Shown piece by piece: positions 19,278 through 19,730 of a DNA stretch of 64,000 nucleotides. The DNA comes from an uncultured Bryobacterales bacterium (lineage in GTDB: Bacteria > Acidobacteriota > Terriglobia > Bryobacterales > UBA6623), in the NCBI GenBank assembly GCA_958295955.1, contig OY282420.1, positions 829,899-893,898 of the forward strand. Direction: 5' to 3'. The position numbers were made by a program, and so were the translations under genes. The notes below the pieces were generated by a model that had not been told where the DNA came from, searched no databases, and saw only the letters and a program-made list of their open reading frames with translations. The stretch's first letter is position 1. Every line of letters begins with the position of its first letter.

Positions 19278-19730
19278 ATGGACATACGCCCGTTGCGGCT
19301 GCTGCCGGCTCTGGCAACTCTCGCGGCCTTCGGCTGCGGAGAGGCGCCCGACAGCGCCGAGAATCCGGAATCGGCGCAACTCACCGCCGCCGCCCTCGAA
19401 GTCCGCGAGATGGACGTGGACGGCGTCGCCGAGCGCCTCGCCGCCGGCGAGGATATTTTTCTGCTGGACGTGCGCCGACCCGACGAAATCGAAGAGCACG
19501 GCGCCATCGAAGGCTACGTCAACATTCCCATCGAAGAACTCGAGGGCCGTCTCTCGGAAGTACCGCGGGACAAGCCGATCGTCACCTATTGAATGCGCGG
19601 AGGACGCGCCTCCCGTGCGGGGGACATACTTCGCCAAAACGGCTACACTGCCGAGATCCAGACCGGCGGCATCACCCAGTGGAAGGAAAAAGGCCGGGCC
19701 ACGGTGAAAGCCGCAGCGGACGGTGAATAG
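19278..19730 (+). CDS. Rhodanese-domain lipoprotein with probable selenocysteine (TGA 19590-19592) at the catalytic position
   Basis: Lipobox LAAFGC; LLDVRRPDE..GAIEG..NIP..L; then IVTY-[TGA]-MRGGRASRAGDILRQNGY..GGITQW..G to TAG 19730, which completes the rhodanese fold. Confidence 0.85.
19593..19625 (+). promoter_or_regulatory. Candidate bacterial SECIS hairpin
   Basis: Immediately 3' of the TGA: GCGC-GGAGG-ACGCG-CCTCC-C-GTGC stem-loop, or the alternative CTCCC-GTGC-GGGGG whose G-first loop begins about 22 nt after the UGA. Confidence 0.5.

Follow-up and report, generated by a model that had tools for sequence, protein, structure and literature searches.

The window analysed here (the whole stretch of DNA, 64,000 nucleotides in length) comes from a 4.58 Mb genome in 3 contigs, 95.5% complete, of a Bryobacterales-type member of the Acidobacteriota. 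On its forward strand, 15 nt after an aldo/keto reductase gene (18354-19262, +), an ATG-initiated open reading frame begins at 19278 and reaches, after the C-terminal end ...DKPIVTY, a TGA at 19590-19592, beyond which the same frame stays open through MRGGRASRAGDILRQNGYTAEIQTGGITQWKEKGRATVKAAADGE to a TAG at 19728-19730. This TGA is the single in-frame one between 19278 and 19730, and it is placed at the column of the catalytic Cys of rhodaneses. Directly 3' of it in the window stands an ATG (TGAATG), with a 45-residue open reading frame at 19593..19730. The 39 long non-overlapping open reading frames of the window end in TGA in 21 cases, in TAA in 11 and in TAG in 7. A sequence-only reading of this stretch had already held that the called frame ends at IVTY-TGA where a rhodanese carries its Cys, that the frame beyond the TGA completes the domain up to the TAG, and that TGA is an ordinary stop here, with no change of the genetic code; all three points are borne out, by the alignment of the Cys column, by a Pfam match that spans the TGA and by the stop usage just given. 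The features of the locus are collected in Table 1.

Table 1. Features of the rhodanese locus, in positions of the window
Feature	Position	Strand	Detail or basis
Complete gene, probably of a selenoprotein	19278..19730	+	150 codons, TGA codon 105 as Sec, plus TAG stop
Predicted signal peptide with lipobox (...LAAFG/C)	19278..19337	+	Cys20 codon 19335-19337
Probable low-complexity tether, from anchor to domain (about residues 21-40)	19338..19397	+	Block-mean pLDDT 49-59
Rhodanese homology domain (residues 50-138)	19425..19691	+	Pfam, AlphaFold2 (AF2) model, Foldseek
UGA codon for predicted Sec105, at the catalytic position	19590..19592	+	TGA/TGC column in orthologues, Cys alignments
Alternative hairpin A (that of the sequence-only reading)	19599..19613	+	GGAGG-ACGCG-CCUCC, in the MFE fold
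Candidate SECIS core, hairpin B, the best supported	19609..19623	+	Stem CCUCC/GGGGG, 5 bp, loop CGUGC, covariation

Downstream of the rhodanese gene lies a Gfo/Idh/MocA oxidoreductase gene (19787-20953, +). The aldo/keto reductase gene recurs upstream in the window's genus and in one other genus; in other genera a LysR regulator is found upstream and an HpcH/HpaI aldolase downstream, and the gene neighbours across the genera examined show no link to sulfur or selenium. The neighbouring LysR proteins score under every NCBIfam cut-off, including that of the selenium-associated NF040786 (130.1 vs 250). Both flanking oxidoreductases open with twin-arginine-like signals, MQRRNFIRHALLGG... and MDRRRFLIAASAAG..., and the whole stretch may encode exported proteins. 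Two long open reading frames elsewhere in the window, at 12926-14659 (+, 577 residues) and 21883-24510 (+, 875 residues), match no Pfam family at E <= 1e-5. A scan for promoters and terminators gave nothing useful, and a tRNA scan of the window found none.

Translated across the TGA, the product matches PF00581 (Rhodanese) with an E value of 2e-13 and 51.1 bits (gathering score 22.2). When solved structures are searched by sequence, residue 105 falls on the Cys of IIIFCQVGLR (residue 531 as counted along the printed alignment; the structure matches include a C531S entry for this reductase) in Npsr (3NTA/4OCG), the persulfide reductase of Shewanella, and on the Cys of IVTVCRAGGRS in BpPRF (5VE3), a Burkholderia persulfide dioxygenase-rhodanese fusion. 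The fold was modelled with AlphaFold2 from 67 aligned sequences, namely the window protein and 66 full-length Cys forms from public collections, in all 66 of which C105 is invariant. Mean pLDDT is 83.8, with block means of 94-98 over residues 41-140 and of 49-59 over residues 1-40. U105, the nucleophile with which the six-residue active-site loop U-M-R-G-G-R (19590-19607) starts, closes a strand (residues 101-105) in the model, and the loop leads into a helix (residues 109-120). A Foldseek comparison with the PDB has only rhodanese domains among its top matches (5VE5_A: E 3.4e-8, with an rmsd of 1.9 over 101 columns). Judging by this model, a 104-residue product ending at the TGA would be without the nucleophile, its loop, two helices and one strand. 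The mature chain has no Cys besides Cys20, the residue predicted to be lipidated, so that Sec105 would act alone, which fits a single-residue transfer mechanism.

The N-terminus reads MDIRPLRLLPALATLAAFG followed by C, is without a twin-arginine motif and fits the lipobox rule (PROSITE PS51257 type). The lipobox Cys, C20, is invariant in 67 of the 67 aligned proteins, in agreement with the lipoprotein signal (LAAFGC) that the sequence-only reading had claimed for this end of the protein. Lipobox-type N-termini are found in most orthologues of the window's family and in Verrucomicrobiales; the N-termini of two other Bryobacterales families resemble ordinary signal peptides. These sequence features indicate that the rhodanese is probably exported, as a lipoprotein, and the low pLDDT of residues 21-40 that these residues probably form a disordered, flexible tether.

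Orthologues were sought in the host genome and 40 relatives of the same order, a match at E <= 2.6e-19 being taken as orthologue-level. Such a match is present in 35 of the 41 genomes, with one in-frame TGA in 26 of them and none in 9. The TGA is found throughout the window's genus (6/6 genomes), and the other genera of the same family comprise 9 genomes with it and 9 without. When the codon at the catalytic column was read in 30 fetched loci (a reading that left out the TGA-bearing matches of genomes G025, G026, G036, G037 and G038), it was TGA in 21 and TGC in 9; the column to which the sequence-only reading had looked for Cys or a conserved TGA in homologues thus holds both. A class-wide sample of 151 genomes yielded 10 matches at E <= 1e-20, 9 of which carry one TGA. 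The close relatives belong to the Bryobacterales (Acidobacteriota), and the TGA form also occurs at three Verrucomicrobiales MAG loci. In all Sec forms, down to about 45% identity, the identity over residues 106-138 is about that over residues 45-104; at one locus (L038) it is 58% upstream of the TGA and 67% downstream. Being conserved across genomes, and not read from a single sequence, the pattern is beyond chance.

The three Verrucomicrobiales loci (L063-L065) share their Sec form, VTAUNGGGRAA, and their SECIS loop with loci L045, L046 and L049 of some Bryobacterales families. This common form may be the result of lateral transfer between phyla.

To locate the SECIS element, 60 nt around the codon were aligned without gaps for 21 Sec forms and, separately, for 9 Cys forms. 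Two hairpins (A and B in Table 1) are mutually exclusive, as both need the arm CCUCC at 19609-19613, which is the 3' arm of A. Hairpin B pairs this arm with 19619-19623 around a loop at 19614-19618, whose GU is found at nt 26-27 counted from the U of UGA; the distance of bacterial SECIS elements from the UGA is about 16-37 nt. The proportion of cells paired in Sec forms is 89% for hairpin A and 80.7% for hairpin B, and the pairs changed on both sides number 2 of 5 and 4 of 7, respectively. The covariation score of hairpin A is attained by 39 of 500 shuffles and that of hairpin B by none (0/500), and every slid control of hairpin B scores below the actual structure. Among the Cys forms, 66.7% of cells are paired for hairpin A and 39.7%, with no signal, for hairpin B. 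The covariation in hairpin B consists of changes from C-G to U-A, four times (columns 27/39), and from C-G to G-C (columns 30/36), at sites that are either synonymous or amino-acid-changing. Its loop columns C31 G32 T33 G34 (CGUG) show no variation among the 21 Sec forms; every one of these has U as the Arg wobble base in the loop, and no Cys form (0 of 9) does. The element lies within coding sequence, with Arg-Ala fixed as CGU GCG and the Ala/Gly choices at residues 115-116 apparently tracking the stem. The Verrucomicrobiales loci, which were held out and took no part in deriving hairpin B, carry CCGCG-CGUGC-CGCGG at the same place in 3 of 3 cases.

Hairpin B does have imperfections: 8 of 20 distinct Sec sequences contain a U-C mismatch, and only 5 of its pairs form in the window itself, whose sequence cannot make the two outer ones. 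Folded as a single sequence, the region does not clearly surpass its shuffles in stability (z -1.29 and -1.83), and the MFE structure prefers hairpin A. An Rfam scan of 19500-19800 at E <= 10 returned no SECIS family, its matches (mir-663, eeev_FSE, sR16) being chance ones only. The GC-rich hairpin that the sequence-only reading had placed after the UGA is hairpin A; it is present, but the better-supported SECIS is the next hairpin along. Hairpin A was rejected as the main SECIS, since most of its pairing follows of necessity from the Gly-Gly-Arg-Ala-Ser codons, its covariation score is matched by the shuffles counted above, the most divergent Sec forms show defects in it and its loop is without GU. 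Hairpin B is therefore the best-supported candidate for the SelB-binding SECIS core.

The host genome encodes a full set of Sec factors. selA (517.9 bits vs a curated cut-off of 267.9), selB (376.1 vs 242.25), selD (295.6 vs 125) and the tRNA-Sec gene selC (75.9 vs 47; identified by ARAGORN as tRNA-SeC with anticodon TCA) are all present above their cut-offs, as the sequence-only reading had proposed to check. A second gene, for an FdhA-like (formate-dehydrogenase-like) molybdopterin protein, has an in-frame TGA in the motif SCNRTUHAPSVAG (L067, TGA 1834-1836 (-); G000:C1, ~248.2 kb), so the Sec machinery has a classical client in this genome. Directly after the TGA of this gene there is a hairpin, GUCGCC-GGUCU-GGCGAC, whose GU stands at nt 23-24 counted from the U of UGA. 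As in hairpin B, the GU occupies the second and third positions of a 5-nt loop, but the rhodanese loop is one codon farther from the UGA and, in the window's own sequence, its stem is shorter. Hairpin B also resembles the SECIS of E. coli fdhF (whose loop GU is G23/U24 in the usual numbering), both having a short GC-rich stem and a small GU loop soon after the UGA. The SelD of the host carries, as an N-terminal fusion, a pyridine nucleotide-disulphide oxidoreductase domain (PF07992 + AIRS/AIRS_C, 755 residues; L009:259-2526 (+), G000:C1 ~3.287-3.289 Mb), and selA lies about 4 kb away.

A search for selA in the host and its 40 relatives detected the gene in 36 of these 41 genomes. Of the 25 relatives that carry the Sec form, 24 have it, the exception being G038, a genome that is 86% complete and in 840 contigs. 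Of the nine genomes with the Cys form, 6 have an intact selA, 2 (G011, G021) gave no match and 1 (G020) has a split one. That selA should accompany the Sec form was a prediction open to failure, and it held. The selA of G020 comes as two overlapping pieces (C14:102160-103486 (-), model positions 1-241 and 236-454), a pattern suggestive of a frameshift.

The locus at 19278..19730 thus combines a conserved UGA that has Cys orthologues, conservation downstream of it, a stem-loop and the sel genes, the features by which a selenoprotein gene is recognized. Neither finding that the sequence-only reading would have taken as refutation, a genome lacking Sec machinery or close homologues all with TGC/TGT, was made. 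It is very likely that we are dealing with one gene, for an exported and probably lipid-anchored single-domain rhodanese of 150 residues in which Sec replaces the catalytic Cys.

Other accounts of the UGA fare poorly. A nonsense mutation from TGC or TGT to TGA at the catalytic Cys, or a sequencing error, leaving a dead gene, would take a change of one base from the TGC that the Cys forms use, and gene callers do end the frame at the TGA. The same TGA is, however, present in 21 of the 30 loci checked (41-91% identity) and in three Verrucomicrobiales MAGs, the frame downstream is open and conserved, and downstream synonymous sites are fixed only in TGA forms. Because the TGA and what follows it are conserved, a pseudogene is effectively refuted and we give it almost no credence. 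Scarcely more credible is a split gene, stopping at the TGA and restarting at the adjacent ATG, whose polypeptides of 104 and 45 residues might reassemble. The ATG and the 45-residue frame in the window would permit this, but ATG follows the TGA only in the window's genus and at L038; elsewhere the TGA is followed by AAC, CGG, CAG, CGC or GAG, which are not start codons, and this excludes stop-and-restart. The break would moreover part the catalytic residue from its loop and leave neither piece with a catalytic Cys or Sec. A similarly slight chance attaches to the UGA being read by a route other than Sec, be it near-cognate insertion of Trp or Cys or a lineage-wide code change. Low-level read-through of UGA is known to occur in bacteria, but a code change sits badly with the 21 of 39 long frames of the window that end in TGA, the homologous residue is Cys and not Trp or Gly, and the full Sec system, a SECIS-like hairpin and the FdhA client are all in place. 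The genomes without a detected selA carry the Cys form, one incomplete genome excepted.

A rival of another kind concerns what the same selenoprotein does: it could serve mainly in periplasmic redox chemistry, its selenenic acid cycling with peroxides or partner thiols, or in the handling of selenium or arsenic. We think this unlikely, though it deserves more weight than the accounts above. A redox role, in peroxide reduction or the oxidation of partner thiols, has been proposed for the Cys enzyme PspE. In the solved structures nearest in fold, the rhodanese domain is joined to a redox enzyme (persulfide dioxygenase, CoA-disulfide/persulfide reductases), the neighbouring genes encode oxidoreductases rather than sulfur enzymes, and most predicted bacterial selenoproteins are thiol-oxidoreductase-like according to one review (PMC9312934). 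Against a redox role, the mature chain is without a resolving Cys, and the best NCBIfam matches, all of them below cut-off, are to sulfurtransferase domains of MoeB/MoeZ and PspE. The active-site loop also speaks against it, a six-residue loop of the CxxGxR type being typical of sulfurtransferases and that of phosphatases and arsenate reductases being longer. It is from the domain, this loop and the persulfide- and polysulfide-handling rhodaneses that are its closest solved relatives that we infer, by analogy, a sulfurtransferase function.

A selenoprotein with that function would be made and would work as follows. On arrival of the ribosome at UGA105 (19590-19592), SelB carrying Sec-tRNA(Sec) would bind the hairpin at 19609-19623 by its loop CGUGC and Sec would be inserted, after which translation would run on to the TAG at 19728-19730. 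The unfolded chain would leave the cytoplasm through the general Sec translocon, a route proposed in view of its lack of a twin-arginine motif, and would be acylated and cut at Cys20, placing the rhodanese domain on a flexible tether of about 20 residues at the periplasmic side of a membrane. There the selenolate of U105, in the loop U-M-R-G-G-R, could take a sulfane sulfur from thiosulfate, a polysulfide or a persulfide as donor, forming an Se-S intermediate, and hand the sulfur to an acceptor in the ordinary double-displacement scheme of rhodaneses.

Sec forms of this protein are represented in public collections by fragments of 97-105 residues (58-69% of the query), unnamed or called "hypothetical protein" (for example P0003, P0004, P0010, P0011, P0027, P0031, P0066 and P0084), and the full-length Cys forms are named rhodanese-like proteins. 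Public gene calls end at the TGA, just as the sequence-only reading expected of automated annotation. With Sec forms mis-annotated systematically, the selenoproteomes of Acidobacteriota and Verrucomicrobiota are under-counted. Quite tentatively, we would suggest that in these proteins of Bryobacterales and Verrucomicrobiales, as aerobic soil bacteria, a family of lipid-anchored selenoenzymes working outside the cytoplasm could be described for the first time. Within this family, Sec and Cys would have been swapped repeatedly between sister genera, and a SECIS overlapping the coding of the active-site loop and the first helix would make RNA and protein constrain each other. To our knowledge, exported selenoproteins beyond the large metal enzymes have been little studied, and we know of no rhodanese selenoprotein that has been characterised biochemically. 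The closely related genomes offer a natural comparison of Sec and Cys in an exported enzyme, and the compact SECIS, which has a sister element in the host's FdhA-like gene, could serve to define the rule of SelB recognition in this lineage.

Several known systems share some of these properties. E. coli PspE, which we take to be a soluble periplasmic protein and not a lipoprotein, is likewise an exported single-domain rhodanese with a loop of the CxxGxR type, and the likeness is detectable in sequence. It has Cys in place of Sec, however, and the window protein stays under the cut-offs of its models (NF007627, 35.5 vs 102 bits, and TIGR02981, 33.1 vs 126.3 bits; PDB 2JTQ). Among solved structures, those nearest in sequence (E 8e-14 to 2.9e-10) and also in fold are BpPRF (5VE3-5), Npsr (3NTA), CoADR-RHD (3ICR) and the Wolinella polysulfide-sulfur transferase Sud (1QXN), whose catalytic Cys aligns with U105; this set consists mostly of cytoplasmic fusion domains, and none of its members has Sec or a lipid anchor.

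Rhodaneses with Sec had been predicted before, as the sequence-only reading stated and as several papers confirm (PMC1088965, PMC13188914, PMC9312934). Earlier reports of such genes come from marine metagenomes and Deltaproteobacteria: a rhodanese-related sulfurtransferase is listed among the selenoprotein families of the Sargasso Sea in 2005 (PMC1088965), and a rhodanese-related selenoprotein is described as abundant in the symbionts of Olavius (PMC1976440). The main text of a 2026 AEM review has no occurrence of "signal peptide", "periplasm", "lipoprotein" or "Acidobacteri", while its supplementary tables may list members (PMC13188914), and a search of a collection of open-access papers, supplementary tables aside, gave no description of an exported or acidobacterial Sec-rhodanese. 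The rhodanese_LYCAU "(seleno)protein" (NF041203, form 3) is, like the present protein, a small single-domain rhodanese selenoprotein, but the window protein scores 30.8 bits against its cut-off of 115, and the motif given for form 3 is CxU, with Sec two residues after a Cys, whereas here Sec replaces the Cys. Nearer are forms 2 and 4, named rhodanese-related sulfurtransferase, the two of the five forms of rhodanese selenoprotein for which the text of that review gives the motif UxxG (PMC13188914; also PMC9312934). The present protein shares with them PF00581 and a Sec that takes the catalytic position and has xxG after it (U-M-R-G in this case); these forms are predictions from comparative genomics, and the match is one of motif description. 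A rhodanese with U-M-R-G fits the UxxG type, a sort of selenoprotein already predicted in other bacteria.
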